Source of the DNA: an uncultured Planctomycetota bacterium
GTDB taxonomy: Bacteria > Planctomycetota > Planctomycetia > Isosphaerales > Isosphaeraceae
NCBI GenBank assembly: GCA_963761445.1
Contig: CAVXHV010000018.1
Location: forward strand, 545,359 to 577,358
Direction: 5' to 3'
DNA: 32,000 bases
Shown here: positions 3,341 through 24,638 of the stretch, piece after piece
How positions within the stretch are numbered: position 1 is the first letter of the stretch
Layout: each line of letters starts with the position of its first letter
Translations under genes and position numbers: made by a program
Notes under the pieces: model-generated
Seen by the model: the letters and a program-made list of their open reading frames with translations, nothing else
Databases searched by the model: none
What the model was told of the DNA's origin: nothing

Positions 3341-3736
3341 ATGGCGGCCAATGGCGCGTCCTTCCCTCAGCCGGGAAGACACCGAGCATTTCTGGAGTTC
3401 GTGCGAATGCACGAGAGCGAGCTGCGCGGCTTCGCCCGGAGCCGGGTCGGGTCCGAGCATGTAACCCAGGACATTGTGCAGACGACGTTCTTGAATGCCT
3501 GGACCGACGCAAGATTCGATCCCAGGCATCCTTACGCCCGCGCATGGGTTTTCACGACTGCTCGCCGGCTGATTCTTGATTGGCGGCGGTCGGAAGAGAG
3601 CAACTCCGTCAGCCTCGATGACTTGAGTGCGCGCGCGCCAGAGAGATGGCTCGCGGGGATCGCAGTCGGCGGTGCCCGTCGATCAGAGGACGCGCGATCC
3701 CCTGGGCTTGATGATCGAGGAGGAGAGGAACCGTAA
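3341..3736 (+). CDS. ECF sigma factor, region-2 fragment (apparent frameshift; continues in 3627..3965)
   Basis: ATG with GGGGA 8 nt upstream. FLEFVRMHESELRGFARSRVGSEHVTQDIVQTTFLNAWTDARFDPRHPYARAWVFTTARRLILDWRR is a sigma-70 region 2 of ECF type. After SVSLDDLSARA the frame turns into junk and stops at 3736. Confidence 0.8.
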   Translation: MAANGASFPQPGRHRAFLEFVRMHESELRGFARSRVGSEHVTQDIVQTTFLNAWTDARFDPRHPYARAWVFTTARRLILDWRRSEESNSVSLDDLSARAPERWLAGIAVGGARRSEDARSPGLDDRGGEEP

Positions 3737-3965
3737 GCTTGATCTCGCGCTGAGCATGCTTTCGGATGATCAGCGAGAGGTCCTCGAGCGATACTACCTC
3801 CGGAAGGAAGGAACCCAGTACGATATCGCGCAAGCGCTGGGCCTCACCATCGCTGCATTTAACAGCCGTCTCAATCGTGCCCGCAAGGAGCTGAAGCGCC
3901 TGATCCTGAAGGTTCGCGGGCATGACGAGGGATCTCGCAACGGCCATGACTTCCGAAACGGGTAA
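3627..3965 (+). CDS. ECF sigma factor, region-4 fragment (the other frame of the same gene)
   Basis: LMIEEERNRKLDLALSMLSDDQREVLERYYLRKEGTQYDIAQALGLTIAAFNSRLNRARKELKRLI is a sigma-70 region 4 HTH. This frame opens at 3627, immediately at a gcgcgcgcgcc run (3629-3639). Confidence 0.8.
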   Translation: MRARQRDGSRGSQSAVPVDQRTRDPLGLMIEEERNRKLDLALSMLSDDQREVLERYYLRKEGTQYDIAQALGLTIAAFNSRLNRARKELKRLILKVRGHDEGSRNGHDFRNG

Positions 3966-3971
3966 TACACT

Positions 3972-5309
3972 GTGCCCTGCGCCAGCCGGTTCTGGGAAGT
4001 CGCCGGAGGCGACTCCTGGCAAGCGAGCGAGCGCCTCCACATCGCGTCCTGCCCTCATTGCCGGGCCGCCGAGCGCGCGATCCGCTATGCCGTCGGCCGC
4101 GCGGTCGCGGAACCGGAGCCGTCGCATTGGATCGACGACGAAACTGTGGAAGACGCCGAGCAGACGTCTTCACGCTGGGTCGCCCCCGATTCCGTTGCCG
4201 TCTCCGAGGCGTCCGTTTCTCTCACTCGTCTCCACGCGGACGCCCATTCCACCGGGCCTCATGAGCCGGACGATTATTCGGGCCGCGATCATCGGATGGC
4301 CGAGAGAATCGCCAATCCGCCAGATTTCGTTGAGACGTTCGCATCCGGCAGCTTCACGCACTCGCCTGGTTCCTCCGTCAATACGGCCGGAAGCTGGTCT
4401 GGCCTGCCTGCCAGGTTCGGCGACTATCAGGTGATCGAACAGCTCGGCACCGGCGGCATGGGAGTCGTATTCAAGGCACGCGACGTCGCACTGAACAGGC
4501 TTGTTGCCATCAAGGTCATGCACCGCTTCGGCAGGTCGGACGAGCGGGCCATGGACCGGTTCCTCCGTGAGGCCCGGATCTCGGCTGGTCTCAACCATCC
4601 ATCGATCGCACGAATCTTCAACGTGAGTCAGATCGATGGCATGCCCTACATCGTCAGTGAGTTTGTCGAGGGCAAGTGCCTCTCCGATTGCACGCCTCCG
4701 CACGGTCGTATTGCGCCCGTCAATCTGGCAAGCATCATCGCTCTCGTTGCCGACGCCCTCCACCATGCACACAAGTCGGGCATCATCCATCGCGATGTCA
4801 AGCCATCGAACATCTTGATCGACCAGGAGCTCTGCCCCCACCTGATCGATTTCGGCTTGGCTCGGTCGCGTGTGGGCGGCGACGAGGCTTCACTTTCCCA
4901 TGCCGGCCAGATCGTCGGTACCCTGAGCTACATGAGCCCCGAGCAGGCACAAGCGCGAAGCGACGCCATCGGTCCGGCCACCGACGTGTATAGCCTCGGT
5001 GCCACGCTCTACACGCTTCTTGCCGGGCGGCCTCCGTTCCGTGGCGACGGTCCGCTCGAGACGATACAGCTACTCACCACCGTCGAGCCCCCTCCGCCCA
5101 GCCAGTTCAACCCGACGATCCCGCGTGACCTTGAAACCATCTGCCTCAAAGCATTGGCCAAAGATCCTCGGAAACGCTATGCGACGGCCAGCGATATGGC
5201 AGATGACCTGCGTCGATTCCAGCAAGGCAGTCCCATTTCTGCTCGCGCGCCGCGGCGCGCGAGCGTGCAGCTCGTCTGCTGCGCCGCCATCGGTTCTTGT
5301 TCCTCATGA
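3972..5309 (+). CDS. Ser/Thr protein kinase with an N-terminal zinc-finger anti-sigma-like (HxxxCxxC) segment; the C-terminus continues in another frame
   Basis: GTG start 7 nt after the sigma stop. The N-terminus carries HIASCPHC, which is H-x3-C-x2-C. Hanks kinase motifs are present: LGTGGMGVVFKARDVALNRLVAIKVM, HRDVKPSNILI, DFGLAR, SYMSPEQ. After DLRRFQQGSPISARAP the frame degenerates (VQLVCCAAIGSCSS, then stop). Confidence 0.85.
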   Translation: MPCASRFWEVAGGDSWQASERLHIASCPHCRAAERAIRYAVGRAVAEPEPSHWIDDETVEDAEQTSSRWVAPDSVAVSEASVSLTRLHADAHSTGPHEPDDYSGRDHRMAERIANPPDFVETFASGSFTHSPGSSVNTAGSWSGLPARFGDYQVIEQLGTGGMGVVFKARDVALNRLVAIKVMHRFGRSDERAMDRFLREARISAGLNHPSIARIFNVSQIDGMPYIVSEFVEGKCLSDCTPPHGRIAPVNLASIIALVADALHHAHKSGIIHRDVKPSNILIDQELCPHLIDFGLARSRVGGDEASLSHAGQIVGTLSYMSPEQAQARSDAIGPATDVYSLGATLYTLLAGRPPFRGDGPLETIQLLTTVEPPPPSQFNPTIPRDLETICLKALAKDPRKRYATASDMADDLRRFQQGSPISARAPRRASVQLVCCAAIGSCSS

Positions 5310-5827
5310 CCCTGATCGCCCTAGCGGCATCGATCTTCGGTGCGTGTTCCGCCCTCCTCGCGCTTCGGTACGGCAAATTTGGCCCCCACTCTGCGAACAC
5401 AACGGTGGTCGCAGTTGACGCAGAGAATCACCGGGACATTCGTCGGGCCGTCAATCGCGCGACGGAGGCCGAGCTCCGCAGGAACGCGAAGCTGGGCGAG
5501 GCACGAGTTCGCGATCAACCCAACCGACGTGATAACCTGCAATCGCTCGCCTCCACCTATCACCGGCTCGGTGACCTTTTCGTCAACACCGACCGGTTCT
5601 CCGAGGCCGAGTGGGCGTATGACAGGGCCGTCAAGCTTCTGCGGCAGTGTCTTCAGCTCGAGGCCAGCGATGCTTCGTCACACAAAGAGCTGGCCGACGT
5701 CCTTTGCAACGTCAGCGAAGTGGTGCGCGTCCTCGGCGAGACACACCACGCCCGCGAGCTTTCCCGAGAGGCCGAGGTGGTCCGCCGCCGCTTGGGCGCT
5801 GAATATGTCGATACCGAGCAATATTGA
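5297..5827 (+). CDS. Transmembrane helix plus TPR-like helical region; most likely the C-terminal part of the preceding kinase (frameshift)
   Basis: This frame is open upstream of the listed TTG and reads RAAARERAARLLRRHRFLFLMTLIALAASIFGACSALLAL. That is the Arg-rich juxtamembrane segment plus TM helix normally found right after the kinase domain in such receptor kinases. It is followed by helical repeats (LASTYHRLGDLFVNTDRFSEAEWAYDRAVKLL...). Confidence 0.6.
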   Translation: MFLMTLIALAASIFGACSALLALRYGKFGPHSANTTVVAVDAENHRDIRRAVNRATEAELRRNAKLGEARVRDQPNRRDNLQSLASTYHRLGDLFVNTDRFSEAEWAYDRAVKLLRQCLQLEASDASSHKELADVLCNVSEVVRVLGETHHARELSREAEVVRRRLGAEYVDTEQY

Positions 5828-5947
5828 GGTGCACGGGTTACCTCGATGTGCGTACCGATATAATCGAAATTCGGAGAAATTTGGAAGACCAGGGCCCGAG
5901 GATGGGATAAGAAGGATGTAGTTAACCGCGATCAGAGGGCCCTTTCG

Positions 5948-6514
5948 ATGTCAATCGCACGACGATGCACGGGCAATGATGACTTGTCGACGCTGTTTCG
6001 CCTTGGCGCAGCCGGCTCCCTGACCGACGAGGAGCTCCTCGCCCGGTTCACCGCCAAGAACGACCGCGGCCGATCCGAGGCGGCCTTCGCTGCGCTCGTG
6101 GCGCGACACGGTCGATTGGTACAAGGTGTCTGCCGCCGGATCTTGGGGTGTGCTCATGGGGCCGACGACGCCTTCCAGGCCACGTTTCTGATCCTGGCGT
6201 GCAAGGCTCACTCGGTGCGTGTGGATGACTCGCTGGGTCGCTGGCTTCACGGCGTCAGCATGCGCGTCGCCTGGCGAGCGAGGGCGATCGCGCGAGCGCA
6301 CCATCGCCACACGCAGCCGCTCGGGCGGATCGATCCGCCGGCTGCGTCGCAGACATTGGAAACAATCGAACACGATGAGCTCAGATTGGTTATCGACCAG
6401 GAGATTGCGCGGTTGCCGGCGCGATATCGATCGGTGATCGTGCTCTGCTGCCTTGAAGGTCTCAGCGACGACGTCGCTGCGCCGGCTGAAGTGCCCGATC
6501 GGCACGGTCCATAG
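5948..6514 (+). CDS. ECF-type sigma factor (extended planctomycete-like class), N-terminal fragment up to early region 4
   Basis: DLSTLFRLGAAGSLTDEELLARF...AAFAALVARHGRLVQGVCRRILG...DAFQATFLILACKAHSV...LGRWLHGVSMRVAWRAR...LPARYRSVIVLCCLEGLSDDVAA, then junk. It is a paralogue of the intact sigma domain at 21028..22164. Confidence 0.8.
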   Translation: MSIARRCTGNDDLSTLFRLGAAGSLTDEELLARFTAKNDRGRSEAAFAALVARHGRLVQGVCRRILGCAHGADDAFQATFLILACKAHSVRVDDSLGRWLHGVSMRVAWRARAIARAHHRHTQPLGRIDPPAASQTLETIEHDELRLVIDQEIARLPARYRSVIVLCCLEGLSDDVAAPAEVPDRHGP

Positions 6515-7883
6515 CCGGCTGAATCGAGCACGGGCACGCCTGCGCGACCGGCTGCTCCGGCGCGGACTCGCCCCCGCAGTCGGCGCCACGACGGCGCTTT
6601 CCGCCGCTATGACGTGCCGTGAGGCGGTCGCTCGGGGGCTCATTTCCTCGACGGCCGCCGCCGCAGTGCGGGTTGGAGCGCACGAAGCGACCATTGGGAT
6701 TGTTCCAGCCGCCGCCGTTGCCCTTGCGAATTCTGCACACAGGAGCACGTTCATGATTCGAGGAATTTGCGTGGCCGCGTCGGCCATTCTCGTTCTGGGA
6801 TTCGCCGCCCATGGCTCCGGCGCCGGGGGGTGGCAGGAACAAGGAGCCCAGCCAGGGGCCGATAGGTCGGCTCGCGAGAAAAGCAAGTCATCGAGTCATG
6901 AACTTCCATCCAGAAGGCCGACTCTCGAAGATCGCTATCGCGCCCTCGAAAAGGAATACGAATCGAAGAACGGCGCCTACCTCCACGAATATCAAAAGTT
7001 GACGGCCAGGGCCACGAGTTACGACGATCGCATGAAGGTCGCCTACGAGCTCAAAGATCTAGCCCCGGACAACCTCGCTTTTGCGAAGCGGTTCTTGGAG
7101 CTCGCACGGGAAAAACCCGACGATCCGATCGCCGGCGATGCAGCGTATTATGTTCATCAGATTATTCCGAAGGTGGCGCAGCTTCAACTGATCGACAAGA
7201 GTCGAGACGGCAAAGCCCTCTGGGCCGAGTACTGGAGTCCCTACGTCGAGTCGCTCACGCTCTTGCGCGAACATCACGCGCACAACCCCAGGATGGGTGA
7301 ATATCTTCAACAAATCGCTCTGTGCGCGAGCCCTGAGGCCGAGGCCCTGTTTCGGGAAGTATTGGCGAAAAATCCGTCTCGCTTGGCCAGGGGACATGCC
7401 CTGCAGGGGCTCGCGCGAGCCCTTGAGGACAAATCTCTGACCGTTCAGTCTTTTCTGGAGCACCCCGAGAAGGTCAAGGAGTCAGAGCTGAAGAACGGTG
7501 ACCGGATCATCCGCTGGGTTAACGGGCAGGACCCGGCAGCGCTCATGCTCGAGGTGGAGTCGCTGCACGAGCGAGTTCTCAAGGAGTATTCCGACGTTCG
7601 CACGTTCCCCACCTACCCAGACGACAAGCAAACGATCGACCGGGCGTCCCTGTACTGGTTGGCGAATCACCGTCAATTGATCGTTGGCGCGCGCGGCTCC
7701 CGAGATCGATGGCGTCGACATCAATGGGAAGCGGTTCAAACTGAGCGATTTCCGTGGCAGGGTCGTCGCCCTCGTCTTCTGGGCGAGCTGGTGCGGTCCG
7801 TGTCTGCAAGAAATCCCTCACGAGAAAGAACTGGCGAAACGGCTGGAAGGCAAGCCGTTTGCCCTGATCGGAGTCAACTGTGA
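6453..7883 (+). CDS. Continuation of the same sigma factor: rest of the region-4 HTH, a TM helix and a ~330-aa helical extracytoplasmic region
   Basis: RRLKCPIGTVHSRLNRARARLRDRLLRRGL completes the HTH. The TM helix is ICVAASAILVLGFAAHG, followed by a long helical region. The last ~65 codons (ARGSRDRWRRHQWE...) are junk, because the coding frame switches again near 7690. Confidence 0.7.
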   Translation: MKVSATTSLRRLKCPIGTVHSRLNRARARLRDRLLRRGLAPAVGATTALSAAMTCREAVARGLISSTAAAAVRVGAHEATIGIVPAAAVALANSAHRSTFMIRGICVAASAILVLGFAAHGSGAGGWQEQGAQPGADRSAREKSKSSSHELPSRRPTLEDRYRALEKEYESKNGAYLHEYQKLTARATSYDDRMKVAYELKDLAPDNLAFAKRFLELAREKPDDPIAGDAAYYVHQIIPKVAQLQLIDKSRDGKALWAEYWSPYVESLTLLREHHAHNPRMGEYLQQIALCASPEAEALFREVLAKNPSRLARGHALQGLARALEDKSLTVQSFLEHPEKVKESELKNGDRIIRWVNGQDPAALMLEVESLHERVLKEYSDVRTFPTYPDDKQTIDRASLYWLANHRQLIVGARGSRDRWRRHQWEAVQTERFPWQGRRPRLLGELVRSVSARNPSRERTGETAGRQAVCPDRSQL

Positions 7884-8139
7884 TTCTGACAGAGACAAGG
7901 CCAGCTCTGTTCTCGAAAAAGAGAAGATCACTTGGCCCAACTGGTTCGATGGCGCTCAGGATCGCAAGGGCGCGATCGCCGCTGTCTATCATGTCCAGGC
8001 AATTCCAACCTTCTATATCATCGACGGCGAGGGGATCATCCGGTTCAAGGACGTCCGAGGCGAGGCACTCGATCGAGCGGTCGACGAGACACTGAAGCGA
8101 ATCGAACGCAAGACGCCTGAGCCGCGCCTCGCGAGATAG
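7684..8139 (+). CDS. TlpA-like thioredoxin-fold (redoxin) domain; most likely the C-terminal domain of the same sigma-factor fusion
   Basis: APEIDGVDINGKRFKLSDFRGRVVALVFWASWCGPCLQEIPHEKELAKRLEGKPFALIGVNCD...VQAIPTFYIIDGEGII is a canonical TlpA/ResA-type redoxin with a WCGPC active site. The preceding frame ends ...LANHRQLIVGAR, which supplies the usual residues found before APEI. Confidence 0.8.
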   Translation: MARAAPEIDGVDINGKRFKLSDFRGRVVALVFWASWCGPCLQEIPHEKELAKRLEGKPFALIGVNCDSDRDKASSVLEKEKITWPNWFDGAQDRKGAIAAVYHVQAIPTFYIIDGEGIIRFKDVRGEALDRAVDETLKRIERKTPEPRLAR

Positions 8140-8164
8140 CGTGTGGCGCATCACTCGATTGATT

Positions 8165-11188: not shown

Positions 11189-11668
11189 TGTCGTTGATCT
11201 AACTCGTTCCTCACCGGCGATTCAGTCCTTGGCGATCACGAACAACTGCAGGCTCCGCATCAGCCATTTGTCGCCTTGCTTTAAACGCATCTGAAAGTCT
11301 CCGAAGCAATGCTCGTCGGTCAGCAATCACGCAAAAACGTCCTCCAATTGATATCAAGAATCCATCGCTTAGTCGAGTCAGCGATCCGTTTCTCGGAGTC
11401 GGACTACGGCCTTGCGGCGATCACTCAAGGTCCCACCGGTTTGACCAGCTCGAACGAAACACTTACCGATCGTCCCATCCGACTGGCCTCCGATAACGAA
11501 AAAGACTCCGGTAACGAGCCAAACTCGGTCGGCTGGCGTACAATGAATGTAATGCTTGAAGCAGTCCGTTAATGCCACTAGACTCATTAGGGGGACGAGT
11601 GGCAAGACGTACGGGCTGCGTTGTATCGTGTTGTCGATAAGTTGTGCGACAGCGAGAGGAACGATTTC

Positions 11669-12829
11669 GTGGTGACCAAGCGGTGGCCTCTCCCGGTGGC
11701 CGTGTTGTTCAGTGGCGGCGAGACGCCGGGCATGAACGCATTTTTGCGAAACGTCGTCTGCCTGGGCCTGAACCGGCACGGAGCTCATGTGCTGGGCGTG
11801 AAGGGTGGCTTCGCCGGGCTGGTGCAAAGTGCAAAGCGGGTGCGCTCCGGGGAATTGACCGTCGCCGGTATTCAGGCTGAAATCGCCGGCCACCCGGGTT
11901 TGGCGGGTCTACAGCGCCCCAGCCAGAGCTTGGTGCTCATGGATAGCGACTCGGTCGGTGGGCTGCTCGAGCGCGGAGGAATCGTCCTGGGGTGTTCGCG
12001 CTGTCCGGAGTTTGCGGATCCGGAGGTTCGGTGGCGCGCGATCGAGTTGCTGTGGAACCTTGGAGTTGGAGCGGTAGTCGTGTGCGGCGGCGACGGATCG
12101 CTGGCTGGGGCGGCGTGCTTGGCCAGGGAGTCGGAGTTACGAGTTGTGGGCGTGCCGGCGACACTTGACAACGACGTGCCGATGACGGAAATCGCCCTGG
12201 GGGTGGACACAGCCGCCAACACCTTGGCAGCGGCGCTCGGGCACTTTTCGGACACGGCCGCGGGTGGGTATCGGATCGTGGTGCTGGAGGTGACGGGCCG
12301 AAACAGCGGTGAGCTGGCGCGGATGGCGGCCCTGGCTTCCGGGGCGGAAATCGTGGTCACGCCCGAGTGCGGGTTGTTCACCATGAATAAGATCAATGAG
12401 ATCGCGGCAGAGCTCGAGCGGGCGATGCTCCGCGGACGCCGGCACGCGGTGGTGCTCGTCGCCGCAGGCGTGCTGCTCGACCCGCAACTGGATGGTCAGG
12501 CGAGCGCGAATCCGACGATGCAACTGGCGCGCGAGCTGAGCGCCTATTTTCGCGCGCGATCGAGCTCGCTTCCCGGCCTCGATGTACAAGGCTGCGTTCT
12601 CGGGTCCTTACCGCGGGGCGGCGCGCCCTTGGTAGCCGACCGGATCCTCGCCGCCCGGTTCGCCGAAGCGGCCTGGGAAGTGATCACCAGCCCCGACGAA
12701 CGCAGTGGCGTGCTGGGCATGCACAACGGGTTGATGCTCTCGCAGGATTTCAAAGGCCGGATCGATCCCGAGCGTACCGAATGTGCCCGAAGGTTCTATA
12801 AGCTGCAGAAGGACGTCAGTAAAGTATAG
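11669..12829 (+). CDS. Phosphofructokinase-family protein (divergent PfkA-like)
   Basis: VAVLFSGGETPGMNAFLRNVV, VVVCGGDGSLAGA, GVPATLDNDV, GVDTAANT, VLEVTGRNSGELA and LPRGGAP parallel the PfkA motifs GGDAPGMN, GGDGS, TIDND, MGR and QRGG, with substitutions. I chose the GTG at 11669 (GAGAGGA 8 nt upstream). The ORF is open from TTG 11621, so the start is uncertain. Confidence 0.75.
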   Translation: MVTKRWPLPVAVLFSGGETPGMNAFLRNVVCLGLNRHGAHVLGVKGGFAGLVQSAKRVRSGELTVAGIQAEIAGHPGLAGLQRPSQSLVLMDSDSVGGLLERGGIVLGCSRCPEFADPEVRWRAIELLWNLGVGAVVVCGGDGSLAGAACLARESELRVVGVPATLDNDVPMTEIALGVDTAANTLAAALGHFSDTAAGGYRIVVLEVTGRNSGELARMAALASGAEIVVTPECGLFTMNKINEIAAELERAMLRGRRHAVVLVAAGVLLDPQLDGQASANPTMQLARELSAYFRARSSSLPGLDVQGCVLGSLPRGGAPLVADRILAARFAEAAWEVITSPDERSGVLGMHNGLMLSQDFKGRIDPERTECARRFYKLQKDVSKV

Positions 12830-13917: not shown

Positions 13918-14024
13918 TCGCAGCTATTATGATCTTGCCCTGAGCCGGCTGGCGCCTTGTGAAATCCGCATGGCCAGGAGCAGTCGGGATCAGATCTGCC
14001 GGCTCTTTTGCAGGGGGAATGTTG

Positions 14025-14681
14025 ATGCCGTTGCGTTCGCTACATGTCGTGCACCTGCTCGTCCGGCACAACCGTCCGGATGGACAGACCGGTTTTCTGG
14101 TCTATCCCCACGAGCACTGGAAGGCCCCCGATGGCCAGCCGTACTTCGCCCTGCCGGCGAAGAAAACGGCGAGCGACCCGCTGGCCGAGCTCATCGAAGG
14201 CACGCCGCTCGATGGTTACGTCCAGGAGATCGCCTTGAAGGAATGGGGAATGCCATCGGACGCCTTTGCCGTGGACCAGGAATTCGAACCGGCAGAGTGG
14301 ACGATGCCTTCATCAGGACAGAAGGACGACGACTACCGCGCGCTGCCGACGCGATTTACGGTCCATCCGGTCGAGATCTGGCTGGCTCCCGAGCACCGCG
14401 AGCCGCTGCAGCAGCGCTTGCATGGTCGCTGGCTCACCGCACCTGAGGTGCTCGAGGAGCCGCGGCTCTCGCCAACGGCCCGGGGAGTATTCGTCGAGCT
14501 CACGAAGCGGCATGAACACCTCCAGTCGCATCCTCCCGGCCCCGAAGAAAAACACAAAGCGCAGCAGGCCGAGGCCCTCGCCCGTCTGTTCGGTCCGGTG
14601 TCTGACCGCCCCGGTACCGACGCCCGGCCGCGAGCTCTGCGCCACGGGGAAGGCGCAGGCGCGCACTTTGCCGGTGCATGA
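14025..14681 (+). CDS. Hypothetical protein with one Nudix-fold-like module (eroded box) and a low-complexity tail
   Basis: SLHVVHLLVRHNRPDGQTGFLVYPHEHWKAPDGQPYFALPAKK...LDGYVQEIALKEWGM has the same W/LPAK/helix-G layout as the two modules of the upstream protein. ATG 14025 has AGGGGGA 6 nt upstream. Alternative starts are ATG 14019 and GTG 13959. Confidence 0.5.
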   Translation: MPLRSLHVVHLLVRHNRPDGQTGFLVYPHEHWKAPDGQPYFALPAKKTASDPLAELIEGTPLDGYVQEIALKEWGMPSDAFAVDQEFEPAEWTMPSSGQKDDDYRALPTRFTVHPVEIWLAPEHREPLQQRLHGRWLTAPEVLEEPRLSPTARGVFVELTKRHEHLQSHPPGPEEKHKAQQAEALARLFGPVSDRPGTDARPRALRHGEGAGAHFAGA

Positions 14682-14772
14682 AGTCGGAGCAAGCTGCGGG
14701 ATTGAATCGAGGGAAGGCAAAACAGCGCACACGGCCCCTCCACAATCGCAAGGTGCTGCATCGAGCGATGAG

Positions 14773-15777
14773 ATGCACGATACCGAAGCCGATATGGCGC
14801 GCTGGCCGGCGCTTGAGCCGATGCTCAGGACGTGTGCTGAGGTCGTCGAGCCCGCGTTCCGCAGGGTCGATAAGGCGGCGCTGCGGCATCAGTGGAGTCA
14901 CCGGCAGCTTACCAAACTGGCAACGGTCTTCGGCGCCGCCGCGGTCATCTTCGCGATACTCCAGCTTGCCTTCGCCGACATGATCGGGGCGCACGTGCTC
15001 ACGATGCCCGAGCTCATCGCGGTGGTGCTTGCGTTCCTTGCCGTCGGGCTGGGAATTCGTGTCGCGTTTCAGGCCAACTGGCTGCTCGCCCGCAACAAGG
15101 CCGAGCGGCTCCGGCTTGCCAAGTTTCGGTTCCTGATTGATCCAGATCTTTGGAGTGGCGGCCCCAGCGTGCAGGCTCGAAAACGCGCGGAGCTGGAAGA
15201 AAAAGTCAGGATGATCCAGCAAAGCCGCCCTTCTGATCTGCATCACTGGGTCGAGCGCGACACCGTCCCCGACCCGCCACCTCCGGTGCTGGCCCTGCGT
15301 GCGCTGCCGCCCTCCGGCGGCGAGCTGCTCGATTACTACCGCACGCGGCGATTGCATTTTCAGCTCGCCTTCTTCCGCAAACGAGCCGACCAGAACTTCG
15401 CGATCAACAAATACACAAAACTCCTGTCGCCGATCCTGTTCTTCGGCAGCGTCGGGGCCGTCCTGATTCACTTCGGCTCCGACTTGAGGACCGGGGATGA
15501 AAAGCTCGACACCCTCAGCCGCTGGTTGATCGTGCTCGCGGCGTCGCTGCCGGTTTTAGGCGGAACGATTCGCACGTTCCACACCGCCTACGGGTTTGCG
15601 CCGAACACATACCGCTATCGGGCCAAGGCGGTCGCGCTGGCATCCATCGACTCGGTGCTGCAAAATGCGACCGACGCCGGCTCGCAGTTCCTCGAGCTTT
15701 GGCTCTGCGAAGAGACCCTCGAGACGGAACATCGCGAATGGCTGCGGCTCATGCTGGAAGCGGAGTGGTTCGCATGA
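14773..15777 (+). CDS. Four-TM membrane protein built from two SLATT/DUF4231-like 2TM units (334 aa)
   Basis: The predicted TM helices are LATVFGAAAVIFAILQLAF, LIAVVLAFLAVGLGIRVAF, LLSPILFFGSVGAVLIHFG and WLIVLAASLPVLGGTIRTF. Each pair is followed by an amphipathic helix (QANWLLARNKAERLRLAKFRF; NTYRYRAKAVALASI). The second pair is preceded by YYRTRRLHFQLAFFRKRADQNFAINKY, as in SLATT/DUF4231 families. The first ATG after the upstream stop is at 14773 and its SD is weak. The 169 codons upstream in ORF 14266..15777 are junk that overlaps the previous gene. Confidence 0.55.
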   Translation: MHDTEADMARWPALEPMLRTCAEVVEPAFRRVDKAALRHQWSHRQLTKLATVFGAAAVIFAILQLAFADMIGAHVLTMPELIAVVLAFLAVGLGIRVAFQANWLLARNKAERLRLAKFRFLIDPDLWSGGPSVQARKRAELEEKVRMIQQSRPSDLHHWVERDTVPDPPPPVLALRALPPSGGELLDYYRTRRLHFQLAFFRKRADQNFAINKYTKLLSPILFFGSVGAVLIHFGSDLRTGDEKLDTLSRWLIVLAASLPVLGGTIRTFHTAYGFAPNTYRYRAKAVALASIDSVLQNATDAGSQFLELWLCEETLETEHREWLRLMLEAEWFA

Positions 15778-16170: not shown

Positions 16171-16398
16171 TCACCGTGTTCCCGCCTGAGCTTCCCTGTA
16201 TAGTCCCTGAGCCTCGATGTAAGCTTCCACGCCGCGTGGGACCATGTAGCGGATGCTCTTGCCGTCGCGCACTCGCCGGCGAAGGTCGGTTGAGGCGATT
16301 CCGATCGGTGGGATCGTGACCGCCGTGATCGGGCGTGCGTCCTCACCGAAGGAAGGTAACGCGAGAGGGTCGGCCTCTTCGATGCCGGGGCGATTCAC
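16171..16398 (-). CDS. nadD: Nicotinate-nucleotide adenylyltransferase, C-terminal fragment (other frame)
   Basis: This frame reads IARLATIVVVNRPGIEEADP...IGIASTDLRRRVRDGKSIRYMVPRGVEAYIEAQGLY, which includes the conserved NadD C-terminal ISST.IR....G.SIRYLVP block. The frame stays open upstream of 16398 to the CG run at 16425-16433. Confidence 0.85.
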   Translation of the reverse strand: MNRPGIEEADPLALPSFGEDARPITAVTIPPIGIASTDLRRRVRDGKSIRYMVPRGVEAYIEAQGLYREAQAGTR

Positions 16399-16781
16399 GA
16401 CGACGATCGTCGCCAGCCGGGCGATGCGCGCGGCTCGCGCCAGCTCGGTAAATCGTTCAGGCTGTCGCCACCGATCAAGAAGAACAGGTCGTCCTCCGGC
16501 CGCTCGCGTGACACGTATTCCAGCGTCTCCACGCTGTAATGCGGGCCGGGCCGTATCGCCTCGATCTCCGAGACCGCAAACGACGGGTGGCCGGCGACCG
16601 CGATCCGCGCCATTTCGAGTCGATGAGCGACCGCTGTCCGCTCGCCGCGCTTGTGCGGTGGCTCGCCGGCCACCACAAACCAGACACGCTCGAGCTCACA
16701 ACTCTCGCGACACTGGTCCGCCAGGACGAGATGCCCCAGATGGATCGGGTCAAACGTGCCTCCGAAAATTCCCAGTCGCAT
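16395..16781 (-). CDS. nadD: Nicotinate-nucleotide adenylyltransferase, N-terminal fragment (apparent frameshift)
   Basis: ATG at 16781: MRLGIFGGTFDPIHLGHLVLADQCRE...VWFVVAGEPPHK...VSEIEAIRPGPHYSVETLEYV...FFLIGGDSLNDLPSWREPR, then junk and a stop at 16395. It carries the GxFxPxHxGH nucleotidyltransferase motif. Confidence 0.85.
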   Translation of the reverse strand: MRLGIFGGTFDPIHLGHLVLADQCRESCELERVWFVVAGEPPHKRGERTAVAHRLEMARIAVAGHPSFAVSEIEAIRPGPHYSVETLEYVSRERPEDDLFFLIGGDSLNDLPSWREPRASPGWRRSSS

Positions 16782-16973
16782 TTGCGAGAAACCCTCATGC
16801 GCCCGCCCGCTTGCGTGGAAAACGAATCGCCGCTGGGCGCCGTTTTGGCGTGGACAGACGCGCACTAAACGAGTGTATTAGATATTCAACGCGCCGTCAC
16901 TCAGGTCTTGGCCGGACTGCGTCACAATCGCTTTCCGCAGAACATCCCAACTCTACCGCGACAGGTCATCAGA

Positions 16974-19388
16974 ATGGATCCCGAGCCAGGCGACGGCCAG
17001 AAGCACTCTGGAGAAGAAGACCAGAGTCGCGGCTTGGCTCCGGGCCCTGTCCCAGGTGACGACAGTCTGATCGCCCTTCGCCAGGGAACGTGGTTTGGCA
17101 TCTCGGATGCCCCTCCTTTGCCTGCGGGTCCGTACGCGGGCGTCGTTTTCAACCGGCCGATCGAGCAGGTCCTGTCCTACCACGTCCCCAGCCGGCTCGA
17201 GCGGATCATCCGCCCCGGACAGCGCCTGCGAGTTCCCCTGGGCCAGGGCAATAAGCTCACGGTCGGCTATTGTGTGCGAGTGGATGATGCCGCGCCGGCT
17301 GACCTCGATTCCGCGCGGATCAAGGATGTCGTGGAGGTGCTTGATCCGTCGCCGCTCATCGATTCCAAAATGCTGGCCCTCACGCGGTGGATGGCCGACT
17401 ACTACGCATGCTCCTGGGGGCAAGCGCTCGACGCCGCCGTGCCCGCCGGTGTCAAGAAGCATGCCGGGACTCGGATCGCCACTTTCTTGACGGTGCCCGA
17501 GGAAGTGCGCGAAGCGCTCGTGGCCGGCAAGATCGACCCACCGCTGACCCCCAAGCAGTCCGCCGTGATGGACGTGCTCCTCCGCGGCGATTTGCTGAGT
17601 GTCGGCGACGTATGCCGGCGGGCGAAATGCGCGCCGGGGCTTGTCCATGCCCTGCGCGGCCGCGGGTTGGTGCGTCCGGTGCGGAAGCGGCTTCCGGTCG
17701 GACTCGCGGGGGCGACCGCGGCTCGTGCCACTGATCCACTGCTCGATTCGGGCGCCCCCCCGGCCACAGACCGCGAAGAGCCGTTGACCTTGACCGCGGA
17801 ACAAGAAGCGGCACTGGTGCGGCTCGAAGCGGCGATCGCTGCGGGCAGCTTCGGTCCGTTCTTGATTCACGGAGTCACCGGCAGCGGAAAGACCGAGGTG
17901 TATCTGAGGGCGATTGAACAGGTGGTGGCGCAGGGACGTGAGGTGATCGTTCTGGTGCCCGAGATCAGCCTGACGCCGCAGACGATCGAGCGCTTCAGCC
18001 GGCGGTTCGGCAAGGTGTCCGTGCTGCATAGCCACCTTTCCGACGCAGAGCGCCACCGCTACTGGCAGAGCATCGCCTCCGGCGAGGTCCAGGTGATCGT
18101 GGGTGCGCGCTCGGCCGTCTTCGCGCCGGCCCGGCGACTGGGCTTGATCGTCATCGACGAAGAGCACGAAAGCACGTTCAAACAGGAGACTACCCCGCGA
18201 TACCACGCGCGCGACGTCGGCGTCAAGCGCGCCCAGTTGGAGGGGATTCCGGTGCTCCTGGGCTCGGCGACGCCCTCGCTCGAATCGTGGCAAAACGCCC
18301 AGCTCGGCCGATATTCCCTGGTCTCAATGCCGTTTCGAGTCAGCGGCCGGTCCCTGCCGGGAGTCGAAATCATCGACTTGCGGCACGAGAAGACGGCTCT
18401 TGGGTGCTTGAGCCAGCCGCTGCGCCAGGCGATGCACGACTCACTCTCTGCCGGCGGCCAGGTGATCCTGCTTTTGAACCGCCGGGGTTTCCATACCTTC
18501 GCTCTCTGTCCGCGATGCGGCGAAGTCGTCAAGTGCCATGCGTGCGACGTGGCGACGACGTACCATAAAAAACGCCACATTTTGATTTGCCACACCTGCG
18601 ATGCCGAACGCCCCTGCCCGCAGGCATGCCCGGGCTGTGGCGCGCCCAAACTTTACTATGGGGGCATCGGCACCGAGCGGCTCGAGCGCGAGATAGAGCT
18701 CGCGTTTCCGGGCGTTGCCTCGCGCCGGATGGATTCCGACACGATGCGCGGCAGCGGTAGCCACGAACGCGTGCTCAGGGCGTTCCAGACCGGTCAGGTC
18801 CGGATCTTGCTTGGCACCCAGATGATCGCCAAAGGGCTCGATTTTCCCAACGTCACCCTGGTGGGCGTCGTCAGCGCCGATACGGCGCTTCATTTGCCGG
18901 ATTTCCGCGCCGCCGAGAGGACGTTTCAGCTCATGGCACAAGTCGCGGGCCGAACCGGAAGGGGAGATCGACCCGGACGCGTGATCGTGCAGACCTTTTC
19001 ACCGGAGCACCCCGCGATTCAGCTCGCGGCCCGTCACGATTTCGTGGGATTTGCTCAAATCGAGCTGCCAGTCCGGAAAGCGTTCGGTGTTCCACCCTAC
19101 GGCAGACTGCTGCGGGTGATCGCGCGGGGCAGCAATGAAGCAAGCGTTCGATCATACATGGACGAATTGGGCGAGGCGTTCGCCTCCGAGTCTGACCCCT
19201 CCGTGCGGATCTTGGGCCCGGCGCCGGCGCCGGTCAAGAAGATTCGCAATCTCCATCGGTTCCATCTCCAGCTTCGTTGCCCGAACTCGAAGCCGCTCAA
19301 GCTGTTGGCAGGCGTGATACCACGCCGCTATCCGCCGCCGGAAGGTGTCGAGGTTGCCGTCGACGTCGATCCGATCTCCATGCTTTGA
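16974..19388 (+). CDS. priA: Primosomal replication-restart helicase PriA
   Basis: Motifs seen: YAGVVFNRPIEQVLSYHVP, LIHGVTGSGKTEVY (Walker A), VIDEEH, and the Cys-rich zinc region CPRCGEVVKCHACDVATTYHKKRHILICHTCDAERPCPQACPGCG. I chose the ATG at 16974; the ORF is open from TTG 16908. Confidence 0.9.
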   Translation: MDPEPGDGQKHSGEEDQSRGLAPGPVPGDDSLIALRQGTWFGISDAPPLPAGPYAGVVFNRPIEQVLSYHVPSRLERIIRPGQRLRVPLGQGNKLTVGYCVRVDDAAPADLDSARIKDVVEVLDPSPLIDSKMLALTRWMADYYACSWGQALDAAVPAGVKKHAGTRIATFLTVPEEVREALVAGKIDPPLTPKQSAVMDVLLRGDLLSVGDVCRRAKCAPGLVHALRGRGLVRPVRKRLPVGLAGATAARATDPLLDSGAPPATDREEPLTLTAEQEAALVRLEAAIAAGSFGPFLIHGVTGSGKTEVYLRAIEQVVAQGREVIVLVPEISLTPQTIERFSRRFGKVSVLHSHLSDAERHRYWQSIASGEVQVIVGARSAVFAPARRLGLIVIDEEHESTFKQETTPRYHARDVGVKRAQLEGIPVLLGSATPSLESWQNAQLGRYSLVSMPFRVSGRSLPGVEIIDLRHEKTALGCLSQPLRQAMHDSLSAGGQVILLLNRRGFHTFALCPRCGEVVKCHACDVATTYHKKRHILICHTCDAERPCPQACPGCGAPKLYYGGIGTERLEREIELAFPGVASRRMDSDTMRGSGSHERVLRAFQTGQVRILLGTQMIAKGLDFPNVTLVGVVSADTALHLPDFRAAERTFQLMAQVAGRTGRGDRPGRVIVQTFSPEHPAIQLAARHDFVGFAQIELPVRKAFGVPPYGRLLRVIARGSNEASVRSYMDELGEAFASESDPSVRILGPAPAPVKKIRNLHRFHLQLRCPNSKPLKLLAGVIPRRYPPPEGVEVAVDVDPISML

Positions 19389-19453: not shown

Positions 19454-19482
19454 TTTACAAGATTGCCGCCAGCGGTTATTTT
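19454..19482 (+). promoter_or_regulatory. Sigma-70-like promoter candidate: TTTACA - 17 nt - TATTTT
   Basis: It sits in an AT-richer patch of the 452-nt priA/PEP-CTERM intergenic region. The hexamers and the 17-nt spacing were read directly. The promoter consensus of this lineage is not known to me. Confidence 0.3.
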
Positions 19483-19517
19483 GCCGCCCGTTCGTTCACA
19501 CCCAGGATTCGTGACGG

Positions 19518-19539
19518 GGAAGCTTATGGACAAGCTTCC
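19518..19539 (+). other. Perfect 8-bp stem / 6-nt loop hairpin GGAAGCTT-ATGGAC-AAGCTTCC
   Basis: Read directly from the sequence. There is no T-run after it, so it is not a classical terminator. It lies within the putative long leader of the PEP-CTERM gene. Confidence 0.3.
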
Positions 19540-19808
19540 GCCAGTTCGGGCAGGGAGGCCGGGTATGCGAACAAGTCACTTTCGGCTTCCGTCTCCTGAT
19601 ACTCCAGGTCGCGACGATCCGGGCTCGGCCGCATGGTTGGTGCGGGCCCCGGCTGGTGTTGTGAGAGCCGCCATCCGTGTCGTTCGTTCAACCGGTTGCC
19701 GGGATCGGTCTTTCCCGGATTAACAGGGAGTCGGTCCGGAGCACTTCGGCCCCGGGGGAACGCCACACTTCACTTCCAGACGAAGACGTTGCGAAGTCGC
19801 CTAACGGA

Positions 19809-19833
19809 ATGCGACTATCCCATCGGTATTCAG
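19809..19833 (+). repeat. 25-nt repeat, copy A (ATGCGACTATCCCATCGGTATTCAG), directly upstream of the PEP-CTERM gene SD
   Basis: Read directly from the sequence. Its partner at 21159-21183 is the reverse complement with a single mismatch at the central base. Confidence 0.9.
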
Positions 19834-19840
19834 GAGGATC

Positions 19841-20545
19841 ATGATGCAGATGACACAGGGGTGGACCAGGCTACGAATCGTGGCCATCGCCCTGGGGCTG
19901 TTCACCTCGGCCACCGCAGGCGCAAAGGCCGACGGTATTCTGACCTACAGCACCTCGGGATACGTCAACGGGTCGACCGGAGTTTCGACCATGCTCGACG
20001 GCACAACCGTGGCTCCGACCACGAATGCGATCACGTACGCGTCCGTCAACAACACCACCGTTGACACGATCTCAAACCTGGCTCTTGGTGAATTCCAGGT
20101 GGCGCCGCTGGCTGCCAATATGACGACCACCTATACCAATACGCCATTCAGCTTCACGCTGATTCCCTCGGCCTACAATGGGGCAGCACTTTCCAACTTC
20201 ACGCCCCTGACGATCACCGGCGTGTTGAATGGAATGCTCACAGGTAGCACGCAGTCGAGTGTGATTGCCACGATCAGCTCGATTTCAGAAAACACTTTCC
20301 AGCTCGGCGGTGCGACGAGCACGCTGGCTGGCCTGCCGAATCAGGTGCTGCTCGTGCCCAACTCGGGCCCCAACTCGAACGGTGGCGTAACCACGCTGGA
20401 AGCCGCGATCAACACAGTCGGGACAGTGAATCCTGCCCAGGCGCCCGTGCCCGAGCCCAGCACCATCGCGTTGTTCCTGACCACGGTGGGCGGTCTGGCC
20501 CTTCGGAGATACGTTGTGGCCCGGCGCCCCCGCGCCCTGGCCTGA
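19841..20545 (+). CDS. PEP-CTERM sorting-domain protein (secreted, Thr/Ser/Asn-rich)
   Basis: AGGAGG lies 4 nt upstream of the ATG. The signal peptide is RLRIVAIALGLFTSATAGAKA. The C-terminus PVPEPSTIALFLTTVGGLALRRYVVARR has the PEP motif, a TM helix and a basic tail. Confidence 0.85.
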   Translation: MMQMTQGWTRLRIVAIALGLFTSATAGAKADGILTYSTSGYVNGSTGVSTMLDGTTVAPTTNAITYASVNNTTVDTISNLALGEFQVAPLAANMTTTYTNTPFSFTLIPSAYNGAALSNFTPLTITGVLNGMLTGSTQSSVIATISSISENTFQLGGATSTLAGLPNQVLLVPNSGPNSNGGVTTLEAAINTVGTVNPAQAPVPEPSTIALFLTTVGGLALRRYVVARRPRALA

Positions 20546-20651
20546 CTTGAAACGGGAGACGAAAGTCTCTCGCCCCCCGGAGAGCGGATCGAGCCGAGTT
20601 GACTGCTCGCCGCTTTCCCCCGGAATCCCTCGATCGAATCGATCACACCCC

Positions 20652-20687
20652 GGCCCTCGGCCGCGCCAGCGTCCGAGGGTCTTTTTC
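20652..20687 (+). terminator. Candidate intrinsic terminator downstream of the PEP-CTERM gene
   Basis: CCCTCGG (20654-20660) pairs perfectly with CCGAGGG (20673-20679) across a 12-nt loop, followed by TCTTTTTC. Confidence 0.45.
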
Positions 20688-20699
20688 GTTGAGTTCGAG

Positions 20700-21251
20700 T
20701 CAACGGCTACCGCCGGGTTTTTCCGTCCTGCCCTGTTGGAGCTCCGCGACTTTGCGCTCGAGCTCGCTCAAGCGCCCAAGGAGCGCGGCTTTCTCGGCCG
20801 CTTCCTTATCCATGATCTTCATCTCGTATTCCGCTTCGAGATGACGCTGGCGAGCTTCACTCAGGTCGGCGATCGTTCCCCTACCCACCTGAATCTCGGC
20901 ATCCTCGCGCTTCGCGATCTCCTCGAGAATGCTCACGTGGCGCTTCCGTATCTCCGCGCGGTCCGCGTCGGTCTTGGCGGCAAACAGCTCCGCCTTCTCG
21001 AGGCGCTCCAGACCATCAATAAAACGGTCAACTGTCATGCGCCCTTCTTCGTAATAAGCCTTCTGCGCATCGACCCGCGCGGGCTGCGGCAAGTAGCTTG
21101 GCAAGCTGCGGATCAACATCAACCGGCCTGCGAAGTGCGCCAGTCGTCGGCTTTCGTACTGAATACCGATCGGATAGTCGCATCTCTCCGCCGCTTTCGT
21201 CGGCAGCCGGTTTGGGGTCCTGCGCATGAGTTCTTCCCAGGAGCAGAGCAC
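20700..21251 (-). CDS. Coiled-coil domain ORF; probably the C-terminal extension of the sigma-factor gene 21028..22164 (frame change), or else a separate gene
   Basis: VDAQKAYYEEGRMTVDRFIDGLERLEKAELFAAKTDADRAEIRKRHVSILEEIAKREDAEIQVGRGTIADLSEARQRHLEAEYEM...LSELERKVAELQQG is clearly coding. The first ~60 codons of the listed ORF are of uncertain status. Confidence 0.6.
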   Translation of the reverse strand: MLCSWEELMRRTPNRLPTKAAERCDYPIGIQYESRRLAHFAGRLMLIRSLPSYLPQPARVDAQKAYYEEGRMTVDRFIDGLERLEKAELFAAKTDADRAEIRKRHVSILEEIAKREDAEIQVGRGTIADLSEARQRHLEAEYEMKIMDKEAAEKAALLGRLSELERKVAELQQGRTEKPGGSR

Positions 21252-22164
21252 CGCCCCCCGTGGTTGCGATCCCTAACGATAGGACGACACATCCGGCGAT
21301 CGTCAGTTTCTTGAGCAGCATGGTCGTGAGTACTCCCTGGGCCAGTTCCGCCGCGGCCACCGGCAACGAGCCAGCGGCGGCGGACTGGCCGAATGTGAAT
21401 TGTGTTGCCGTGCGGGCCACGGATGAGGCGAGCTGCTCCGGTAGAACCGCTGATGCGGCCGCCGCCGCTGACGCAGCCGCATCACCGACAAGCCAGGCGG
21501 CCAGGGGCCCGATGGCCGAGGGGGCCGAGATACCGCGGCGGGTCAATCGGAACCGAAGCGTGCTCCTTGCCCGCGAAAGCCGGCTGCGAACGGTCCCCAC
21601 CGGACAGCCCAGCCGCGTAGCAGCCTCCTCGTGGGTCAACCCCTCGAGGTAACAGAGAACGACCGGCGATCGGTACTTCTCGGGCAGCCGGCCAACCTCC
21701 TGATGCACCACCGCCGCGCCGTCGGCTCGTTCGATAGACGCACCGGCGCGTGACTCGAGCAGAGGCAGCACGACAGAACGCACCGCCCCGAGTACCCGTC
21801 GGTCGCGAATCTCCCGCCGGATCGAATTGGCCCGTCCCCGCGCCGCGACCCGGAGAGCGACCCCGTACAGCCAGCTCCCGACGCATTCCCGATCACGGAT
21901 CGCGCCAGCCCGGCGCGCCAGCACGAGGAAGGTCGCCTGAAACGCGTCGTGTAGTGCCAAGGGATCGGTCAGAAAATGCCGGCACACGCCCAGCACCATC
22001 GGCCCGTGCCGCGTTACCAGCGCCTCGAACGCCTGCTCACCGTGTTCCCCTCCGACTTCTTGGAATCGGTCGATCAACTCGCCGTCGGTCATCCCCGCGC
22101 ATGTGCCGACATCAAAGAGAGCTTGCAGATCGCCCGTCAGGCCTCGCGAAGATGAACCTGGCAT
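21028..22164 (-). CDS. ECF-type sigma factor (extended class) with a C-terminal TM helix
   Basis: DLQALFDVGTCAGMTDGELIDRF...AFEALVTRHGPMVLGVCRHFL...DAFQATFLVLARRAGAI...VGSWLYGVALRVAARGR...LPEKYRSPVVLCYLEGLTHEEAATRLGCPVGTVRSRLSRARSTLRFRL. The TM helix is LTIAGCVVLSLGIATTGGGALLLG. The last ~15 codons (GRCAEGLLRRRAHDS) look out of frame. Confidence 0.85.
   Translation of the reverse strand: MPGSSSRGLTGDLQALFDVGTCAGMTDGELIDRFQEVGGEHGEQAFEALVTRHGPMVLGVCRHFLTDPLALHDAFQATFLVLARRAGAIRDRECVGSWLYGVALRVAARGRANSIRREIRDRRVLGAVRSVVLPLLESRAGASIERADGAAVVHQEVGRLPEKYRSPVVLCYLEGLTHEEAATRLGCPVGTVRSRLSRARSTLRFRLTRRGISAPSAIGPLAAWLVGDAAASAAAAASAVLPEQLASSVARTATQFTFGQSAAAGSLPVAAAELAQGVLTTMLLKKLTIAGCVVLSLGIATTGGGALLLGRTHAQDPKPAADESGGEMRLSDRYSVRKPTTGALRRPVDVDPQLAKLLAAARAGRCAEGLLRRRAHDS
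21159..21183 (-). repeat. 25-nt repeat, copy B (minus strand reads ATGCGACTATCCGATCGGTATTCAG), inside the sigma-factor extension coding region
   Basis: Read directly from the sequence. It is 24/25 identical to copy A in inverted orientation. On the plus strand both copies have C at the centre. Confidence 0.9.
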
Positions 22165-22338
22165 GGCACCTCAACCCCTTCCCGCGCACTGAAGTCACTC
22201 TCCCGCAATAGTGCACCTGAAGTTGGTTTTCCGATCTGGTTTTTTCAGATTTGCGCAAGTCGCACTCGCGTTGGCAGTTGCTTTCGCTCACAGCATGCCG
22301 CGCGGCAAGAGCGTGCTCCCTACGCTACCGCCGCAGCG

Positions 22339-23979
22339 TCACCCGCTCCGGCCGGCTTTCATCTTCCGGAACCGATCTATCAGCGCATTGGTCGAGCTGT
22401 CATGACCGAGCTTCGCCTCGTCCTTGCTTTGCAGCTCGGGAATGATTTTCTTCGCCAGCGCTTTGCCGAGCTCGACGCCCCACTGGTCGAACGAGTTGAT
22501 CTCCCAGATCGTTCCCTGGGTGAACACGCTGTGTTCGTAAAGCGCGACCAGTGAACCCAGCACTTCCGGAGTGAGCCGCTCGCCCAGGATCACGTTCGTC
22601 GGCCGGTTGCCTTCAAACGTGCGGTGGGGGATCAGGAAATCGTCGACGCCCTCAGCCTTGAGCTGTTCGGCCGTCTTGCCGAACGCGAGCGCCTCGGCCT
22701 GAGCAAAGACGTTCGACATCAGCAGGTCGTGGTGGTCGCCCAACGGATTGAGCGAATGCCCGAACCCGATCAAGTCGCAGGGAATCAGCCGGGTTCCCTG
22801 ATGGATGAGCTGGTAGAACGAATGCTGGCCGTTCGTGCCGGGCTCGCCCCAGTAGACCGGCCCGGTCTGATACGCGACCCGCCGCCCGTCGAGCGTCACA
22901 CTCTTGCCGTTGCTCTCCATCGTCAACTGCTGAAGATAAGCCGGGAATCGCTTCAAGTACTGATCATATGGCAAAACGGCCGTCGTCTCCGCTCCCAGGA
23001 AGTCAGTGTACCAGACCGAAAGGAGCCCCATGAGCACCGGCAGATTCCGCTCGAATGGCGTCGTGCGAAAATGTTCGTCCATCGAGTGGAAGCCGTCGAG
23101 CATTCTCTGGAAATTGTCCGGGCCGATCGCGATCATCGTCGAGAGCCCGATCGCGGAATCCATCGAGTATCGCCCGCCGACCCAGTCCCAGAACCCGAAC
23201 ATGTTGGCCGTGTCGATCCCGAACTTGCTCACTTCGTCGTGATTGGTCGAAACCGCGACGAAATGGCGGGCCACCGCCTGTGAGTCTGCAAGCGCACGCA
23301 AGCTCCACTCGCGGGCCGTGCGGGCGTTGGTCATCGTCTCCAGCGTCGTGAATGTCTTGGACGAGATGATGAACAACGTTTCGGCCGGATCGAGGTCGAT
23401 CGTCGCCTCGGCGAAGTCGGTACCATCGACGTTCGACACGAAGCGGAACCGGAGCGCACGCTCGCTGTAATGCTTGAGCGCCTCATAAGCCATCACCGGC
23501 CCCAGGTCGGAGCCGCCGATGCCGATGTTGATGACGTTGCGGATCGGACGCCCGGTGTGGCCCTTCCATTCGCCACTCCTGATCCTCGAGGCAAACGTCG
23601 CCATCCGATCGAGCACCTCATGCACCTGCGGCACGACATCTTCGCCGTCGACCAGAATCGATTGTCCTCTCGGCGCGCGAAGCGCAACGTGCAGTACCGC
23701 GCGGCCCTCGGTGACGTTGATCTTCTCGCCCCGGAACATCGCGTCGATACGCTCGCGCAGCCCCGATTCCTCGGCGAGATTCTTGAGGAGGTGAAGGGTC
23801 TCATCGGTCACGCGATTCTTGGAATAGTCGAGGAAGAGACCGGCCCCGGAGGCGGTCAAGCGCTCGCCCCGGCCGGGGTCATCGTGGAATAAGCCGCGGA
23901 GATGCACCGCGATCGACTTCTGATGATGTTCTTCGAGTGCGCGCCAGGCCGGGCACTCGCGCAGAGGCTTCCGTATCAT
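22339..23979 (-). CDS. pgi: Glucose-6-phosphate isomerase
   Basis: ATG at 23979 ([20 protein letters not shown]...). Full-length PGI similarity: [68 protein letters not shown]. The 198 codons upstream in ORF 22339..24573 overlap pgm and are junk. Confidence 0.95.
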
Positions 23980-24014
23980 CGTCGGGCTCCAGGTGCAGGG
24001 ATGGTCTCGGGCCG

Positions 24015-24638
24015 TCAAGTGCTCAAAGCGTCGGTCACGATGCGCTGGGCTTCCGCGATGATGGCATCCAGGTGGGCCTGGTCGCGGAAGCTCTCGGCAT
24101 AGATCTTGTAGATATTCTCGGTGCCCGAAGGACGCGCTGCAAACCAGCCCGTCGCAGCGACGACCTTCAACCCGCCGATGGGGGCCCCGTTGGCCGGTGC
24201 GCGGGTCAGCTTGGCCACAATCGGCTCGCCGCCAAGGTCCGATGCTTTGACGTCCGACGGATCGAGCTTCTTCAGGCGCGCCTTCTGCTCGGGGGTCGCC
24301 TCCGCATCGATTCGCGTGTAGAACGGTGTACCGAACTCCTTGGTGAGCTCGTGGTAGTGCTCGCCCGGATCCTTGCCGGTCCGGGCGAGAATCTCCGCGG
24401 CGAGCAGGTCGAGGATGGGCCCGTCCTTGTCGGTCGTCCACACCGAGCCGTCGCGCCGCAGGAAACTCGCGCCGGCGCTTTCCTCCCCACCGAAGCAATA
24501 CGAGCCGTCCAGCAGCTTGGCGCAAACCACTTGAACCCCACCGGAACTTCGGCGAGCGGCCGGTTGAGGGCATTCACAACCCGGTCGATCAAGCTGCTGC
24601 TCACAAGGGTCTTTCCCACCTTGGCATGCGCCGGCCAT
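24015..24638 (-). CDS. pgm: Phosphoglucomutase (alpha-D-glucose phosphate-specific), C-terminal fragment (other frame)
   Basis: [63 protein letters not shown]...[30 protein letters not shown] parallels the E. coli Pgm C-terminal third. The part of the listed ORF upstream of about 24520 is junk. Confidence 0.9.

Follow-up and report, generated by a model that had tools for sequence, protein, structure and literature searches.

Frame breaks in the window

The stretch analysed here, called the window, is 32,000 nucleotides of a draft assembly from an uncultured bacterium of the Isosphaeraceae (Planctomycetota), G000:C18:545359-577358, where G000 denotes the source assembly. It carries several protein-coding genes whose reading frames are broken, and these breaks are the subject of this report. 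A sequence-only reading had listed seven of them; six-frame translation around the seven sites finds every one at its position and reproduces the junction peptides exactly. The breaks lie in six genes, not in the seven that had been claimed, as sites 3 and 4 share one gene that is a single open reading frame (ORF) in orthologues. Comparison with intact contigs adds two further breaks, at 139 and 3982. The affected genes and their breaks are:

1-154 (+), 3' end of an aminotransferase gene; break at 139, one extra base directly after GAGCGC, by which the stop codon is lost and the ORF runs to 282
3341-3965 (+), extracytoplasmic function (ECF) sigma factor; site 1 (3629-3639), one extra base, sigma-70 regions 2 and 4 in different frames; orthologues intact at 207 aa
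3922-5827 (+, probable start), Ser/Thr kinase with an HxxxCxxC N-terminus, a transmembrane (TM) segment and a TPR-like tail; two breaks: 3982, one base missing inside TGCGCC at about codon 20, and site 2 (5244-5261), net one base missing; orthologues read through as single ORFs (633 aa, 628 aa)
5948-8139 (+), one gene of 733 aa, ECF sigma factor/TM segment/helical linker/TlpA-like thioredoxin; site 3 (6476-6485), two bases missing (GCGC here, GCGCGC in relatives), and site 4 (7686-7697), one extra base
16171-16781 (-), nadD, nicotinate-nucleotide adenylyltransferase; site 5 (16425-16436), one base missing relative to three relatives
20700-22164 (-), ECF sigma factor/TM segment/coiled-coil C-terminal extension; site 6 (21074-21083), two bases missing
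24015-25657 (-), pgm, phosphoglucomutase; site 7 (24517-24524), one base missing, in a G run abutting GCGC

Intact orthologues agree with the junction peptides almost letter for letter, for instance at site 1 (LDDLSARA/QRDGSRG) and site 6 (LLAAARA/RVDAQKAYY). A Viterbi frame finder based on codon usage was trained on the long ORFs of the window; its usual positional error is 0-20 nt. It detects six of the seven breaks as direct changes of frame on the same strand, at 5274, 6473, 7696, 16451, ~21235 (site 6, which it missed by 150 nt) and 24519; the part upstream of site 1 is scored as non-coding. Three junctions are bridged by single Pfam domains, namely Sigma70_r4_2 at site 3, CTP_transf_like at site 5 and PGM_PMM_III at site 7, and at sites 1, 2, 4 and 6 the Pfam matches show a multi-domain protein divided into halves that lie in different frames. 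The kinase most likely begins at the ATG at 3922, which gives it a 44-nt overlap with the end of the sigma factor gene, an arrangement also seen in the intact 633-aa orthologues; it is only through the one-base deficit at 3982 that the GTG at 3972 resembles a start.

Each break had also been described as compatible with the gain or loss of one CG unit, which arithmetic allows for every frameshift. Measured against the intact relatives, a CG/GC unit has been lost at sites 3 and 6 only; the other five are one-base differences. The more specific claim that exactly two nucleotides are missing at site 3 agrees with the intact relatives, which are two bases longer than the window at this point.

Two overlapping ORFs in different frames (13959-14681 and 14266-15777), with a gap in coding potential at 14592-14758, may mark a tenth break. 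They give weak SLATT_3/DUF4231 matches below the Pfam cut-off and have no orthologue in the relatives that were fetched.

Intact copies in independent contigs

Searches with the read-through pgm, nadD and kinase proteins led to five contigs from four other samples (JGI 3300062708, 3300062625 and 3300062626; NCBI GCA_052916165.1). These contigs are syntenic with the window at 91-95% DNA identity and are intact at all seven sites as well as at 139 and 3982, differing from the window by one or two bases per site within near-identical flanks. The genes are present in them as single ORFs: the sigma factor of 207 aa, the kinase of 633 aa, the sigma-thioredoxin protein of 732 aa, nadD of 204 aa, the second fused sigma factor of 488 aa and pgm of 547 aa. 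Full-length relatives of the read-through proteins are 97% (pgm), 92% (nadD) and 90% (kinase) identical. At site 6 the window has (CG)3 and two 95%-identical contigs have (CG)4. Natural splitting of the orthologues at these points, raised in the sequence-only reading as a possible refutation, is thus not what the independent contigs show. The same kind of contig search with the window's own PFK protein found nothing.

In two of the genes an ECF sigma factor is fused through a TM segment to a large C-terminal extension, a TlpA-like thioredoxin domain (5948-8139) and a coiled coil (20700-22164), respectively. Both fusions are conserved as single ORFs in relatives, at 732-740 aa and 488 aa. The 740-aa sigma-thioredoxin orthologue is that of G001, a sister assembly of the same genus with ~87% DNA identity to G000, and the 732-aa one is on a JGI contig.

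Selection downstream of the breaks

Downstream of every break, substitutions are biased to the third codon position of that part's own shifted frame, and there are no stops. In the C-terminal part of pgm the substitutions divide 9/4/39 over the three codon positions, with 36 synonymous and 11 non-synonymous changes. The parts downstream of the breaks are under purifying selection. In coding alignments, gap clusters whose length is not a multiple of three outnumber those that are (54 versus 34). Differences in stop codons are few, and all of them lie at gene ends or in intergenic gaps. Pseudogene formation or genome decay was considered as a description of the window and set aside, the third-position bias being kept and the lesions consisting almost only of one-base indels.

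Sequence context of the breaks

The sequence-only reading had placed all but one of the breaks at alternating (CG)n runs. The common denominator is instead the tetramer GCGC, and every site lies within 2 nt of one. This holds for seven of the seven indels when these are pinned by alignment; a random coding position has a probability of 0.087 of lying so close, which gives ~4e-8 for seven, values that are approximate because the placement of a gap floats by a base or two. The breaks at 139 and 3982 are likewise within 2 nt of GCGC, so that nine of nine indels in the window have this context. The window contains 363 GCGC sites and 37 runs of (CG)≥3, most of which are not hit.

The same context is found beyond the window. 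A motif test on intervals open in both frames has too little power, with a GCGC every 90-100 nt, and alignment-pinned indels were therefore used for the motif statistics. Breaks in an alignment of G000 and G001 were defined as isolated indels of a length other than a multiple of three and sorted by which of the two genomes shifts frame. Choosing the broken genome by the longest open ORF is unreliable at this G+C content, and the codon-usage Viterbi finder was used instead. In the broken genome GCGC is the most enriched tetramer up to 7 nt from the indel, being present at 26 of 41 single-gap events against a background of 11.6% (P = 5e-15). Around the indels of these aligned events homopolymers of at least 3, at least 4 or at least 5 bases are not enriched. 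As a control, isolated in-frame indels have GCGC nearby in 6 of 20 cases, no comparable excess. The ~26 events do not resolve an extended motif: GGCGC and GCGCC are frequent, and TGCGCA-like contexts are also present. The genome-wide enrichment of breaks that the sequence-only reading had proposed to look for is accordingly strong, with GCGC as its focus. Our literature searches found no paper specifically on GCGC-linked indels.

Break density in the source assembly and its relatives

The G000 assembly comprises 16.07 Mb in 21 contigs, the longest of 6.1 Mb, and has a marker completeness of 84.9%. Twelve 20-kb stretches sampled from its other contigs contain 53 frameshift-like switches in 240 kb. 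In 78 kb of syntenic alignment between G000 and G001 there are 30 events in which G000 is broken and 15 in which G001 is broken, and 21 of 23 breaks predicted de novo inside aligned blocks coincide with a length difference to G001 that is not a multiple of three. The single-gap events of G000 comprise 21 insertions, 8 one-base deletions and 1 two-base deletion. Breaks in G000 are spaced at about one per 2.6-4.5 kb. The densities of frameshift-like switches in the assemblies compared are as follows (G012 is a relative from another genus):

G000, 22.4 per 100 kb (272 kb, 12 contigs), completeness 85%
G001, 21.9 per 100 kb, completeness 91%
G012, 56.7 per 100 kb, completeness 60%
G017, 4.2 per 100 kb, completeness 94%
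G019, 2.5 per 100 kb, completeness 99%
G020, 2.5 per 100 kb, completeness 99%
G014, 0 per 100 kb, completeness 99%

Break density follows the completeness of the assembly and not phylogenetic relatedness. The positions differ as well: G001 is intact at sites 1-6, yet it is broken at points corresponding to 8819, 9303, 17608, 19227, 23587 and 28373, where the window is intact. At the last four of these positions the JGI contigs that cover them side with the window against G001.

The break in pgm common to two assemblies

Site 7 is different in that the one-base deficit in pgm is identical in G000 and G001, the only shared break among the 23 predicted in aligned DNA. The gene is uninterrupted at this point in two contigs 95% identical to the window (547 aa, identical flanks) and in G008 and G012. 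In G012 pgm has a break of its own, likewise at GCGC, ~40 codons before site 7 (GTGCGCTGG; L013:10400-10545, G012:C39). Two JGI contigs that resemble the window more (95%) than G001 does (87%) are intact, and the pgm break is therefore not inherited. An ancestral pgm pseudogene is excluded by the purifying selection on the C-terminal part. The number of coincident breaks expected between the two assemblies, with ~1% of GCGC sites hit in G001, is ~0.25 by our estimate.

Origin of the breaks

We consider it very probable that the breaks are systematic consensus errors of one or two bases in a draft metagenome-assembled genome (MAG), and not features of the DNA of the organism. The intact, near-identical contigs, the breaks throughout the genome and in sister assemblies, the purifying selection on the downstream parts and a density that tracks low completeness all point this way; systematic sequencing or assembly error was also what the sequence-only reading had rated most likely. 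In the organism itself, the two fused ECF sigma factors, the plain ECF sigma factor, the kinase, nadD and pgm are most likely encoded by intact, functional genes. Residual indels of one or two bases, clustered within a few bases of GCGC, would have been left in the draft consensus. The combination of a 6.1-Mb contig with low completeness suggests that the assembly is based on long reads only, probably Nanopore. GCGC could then be miscalled through a modified base in the motif, or through a k-mer-specific bias of base calling or polishing.

Long-read-only MAGs at low coverage are known to retain indels that fragment genes (Sereika et al. 2022, PMC9262707; review PMC13543314). The window resembles these cases in that isolated indels of one or two bases split conserved genes, are dense in drafts, reduce marker completeness and are absent from independent assemblies. 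The classical context is the homopolymer, whereas in the genome of the window it is GCGC and homopolymers are not enriched. Systematic Nanopore consensus errors caused by lineage-specific modification motifs have been described with Modpolish (Chiou et al. 2023, PMC10687267). There, as here, errors that related genomes have in common keep to a short conserved motif, survive in the consensus and are correctable by comparison with close relatives. In the published cases, from Listeria, bases are mismatched at GCAGC or GCTGG and there is a candidate methyltransferase system; the errors described here are indels at GCGC in planctomycete (Isosphaeraceae-like) MAGs, with no C5 methylase found in G000 or G001.

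Several observations weigh against consensus error, or against parts of it. The closest intact contigs are 91-95% identical and thus not the same strain. Only ~2.5% of the GCGC sites are hit (788 sites in aligned DNA), and the motif by itself is therefore not sufficient for an error. To explain the pgm break common to two assemblies, one must assume either coincidence or an error that repeats in a given context; the latter would make it likelier than chance coincidence does. The errors at modification motifs in PMC10687267 are mismatches, as noted, and a methylation cause is without a candidate enzyme apart from methylases of the N4/N6 type: the C5 cytosine methylase family PF00145 has no match in G000 (85% complete) or G001, and PF01555 (N4/N6 methylase) matches at several loci.

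The alternatives that take the frameshifts as real fare poorly against the same data. It is very unlikely, in our view, that they are genuine and recent, in a strain that is pseudogenising or has a GCGC-targeted mutational hotspot. The breaks are truly in the deposited sequence, and as the closest intact comparators are 5-9% divergent a strain-specific change is formally conceivable, but at one break per 2.6-4.5 kb it would kill about one-third of the genes of a 16-Mb genome of free-living type, including nadD, pgm and pgi-neighbour genes. There is no matching excess of nonsense mutations, the parts downstream are under purifying selection, and the sister assemblies have the same density at other positions, tracking completeness and not phylogeny. 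Replication slippage in (CG)n, switching the two fused ECF sigma genes off by phase variation at sites 3 and 6, is similarly improbable. Relatives do have one extra CG/GC unit at exactly these sites and both genes encode regulators; the tracts, however, count just 2-4 units and sit mid-gene or in the 3' part, and in both genes purifying selection acts on what lies downstream of them. The remaining seven breaks, in the same motif context, involve one base each and in part affect housekeeping genes; two-base events are rare in the genome (1 of 30). Simple-sequence-repeat contingency loci, which vary in phase by slipped-strand mispairing, resemble the window in that a short tandem repeat changes length and shifts the frame; at two of the nine sites the difference from relatives is exactly one CG unit. 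The likeness ends with tracts of 2-5 units, mostly single-base events, housekeeping targets and ~22 breaks per 100 kb throughout the genome. As a class, phase-variable simple-sequence repeats were rejected for the window: a whole unit changes at sites 3 and 6 only, the placement is mid-gene or 3', and nadD and pgm are among the targets.

For pgm alone, the shared break might be read as a conserved programmed ribosomal frameshift, being identical in two species 13% apart and followed by a C-terminal part on which purifying selection, read in the shifted frame, is clear. We regard this as scarcely credible. The two contigs nearer to the window than G001 carry an uninterrupted pgm of 547 aa, as does G008, and G012 is uninterrupted at site 7. 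Direct reading of the junction reveals no canonical slippery heptamer (X XXY YYZ), and a single coincidence of errors in about 22 breaks is no surprise.

Within the consensus-error explanation, the sequence-only reading had offered cytosine methylation as the cause, which is possible but unsupported. A broader version is that the errors are the footprint of a GCGC-specific DNA modification common to the Isosphaeraceae-like family, without a classical C5 methylase; we consider this conceivable, though on balance doubtful. Such a modification could be N4-methylcytosine (4mC) from an N4-type enzyme, or something less usual, and would confuse long-read base calling. The specificity for GCGC, the GCGC-adjacent break in G012 in addition to those in G001 and the lack of a PF00145 match in G000 and G001 bear on it. 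The motif data are compatible with either a modification or a plain k-mer or polishing bias.

The window also differs in length by one base from the 95%-identical contigs at 16840, 19436, 19519, 20662, 22239, 28846 and 30155. These seven positions fall at gene edges or in DNA scored as non-coding by the frame finder; some adjoin GCGC and one is at a poly-T. Given where they fall, consensus errors are probably not confined to genes.

The breaks are no biological discovery. They are a data-quality warning for the 16-Mb assembly and its sister assemblies, where, on this interpretation, about one-third of the genes would be split by consensus errors adjoining GCGC. Gene calls, pseudogene counts, completeness, start codons and fusion or split architectures would be unreliable without frame-aware correction or short-read polishing, the start of the kinase being one example of a misassigned start codon. 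Most of the split genes would be recoverable with a motif-aware polisher or by comparing them with close relatives. Should modification prove to be responsible, the pattern would indicate a GCGC methylome, and calling it from raw signal would be worthwhile.

Other features of the window and the assembly

The pgm gene is part of a cluster for glycogen use at 22339-28184 (-), with glycogen phosphorylase (837 aa), pgm and pgi, that is syntenic in G001, G012 and the JGI contigs. PFK is encoded at 11621-12829 and PriA at 16908-19388.

Two repeated elements were seen elsewhere in G000. A hairpin-forming element of ~70 bp at L023:9060-9155 (G000:C9), with the stem GACCACGGTC...GACCGTGGTT, has >25 copies of 80-93% identity in G001. 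The element, which is not a tRNA, resembles a repetitive extragenic palindromic (REP) element or a miniature inverted-repeat transposable element (MITE). A segment of ~880 bp at L017:10140-11030 (G000:C2) has >40 paralogous matches of 65-70% identity in G001; it represents a large family of genes or elements that may contribute to the 16-Mb genome size.

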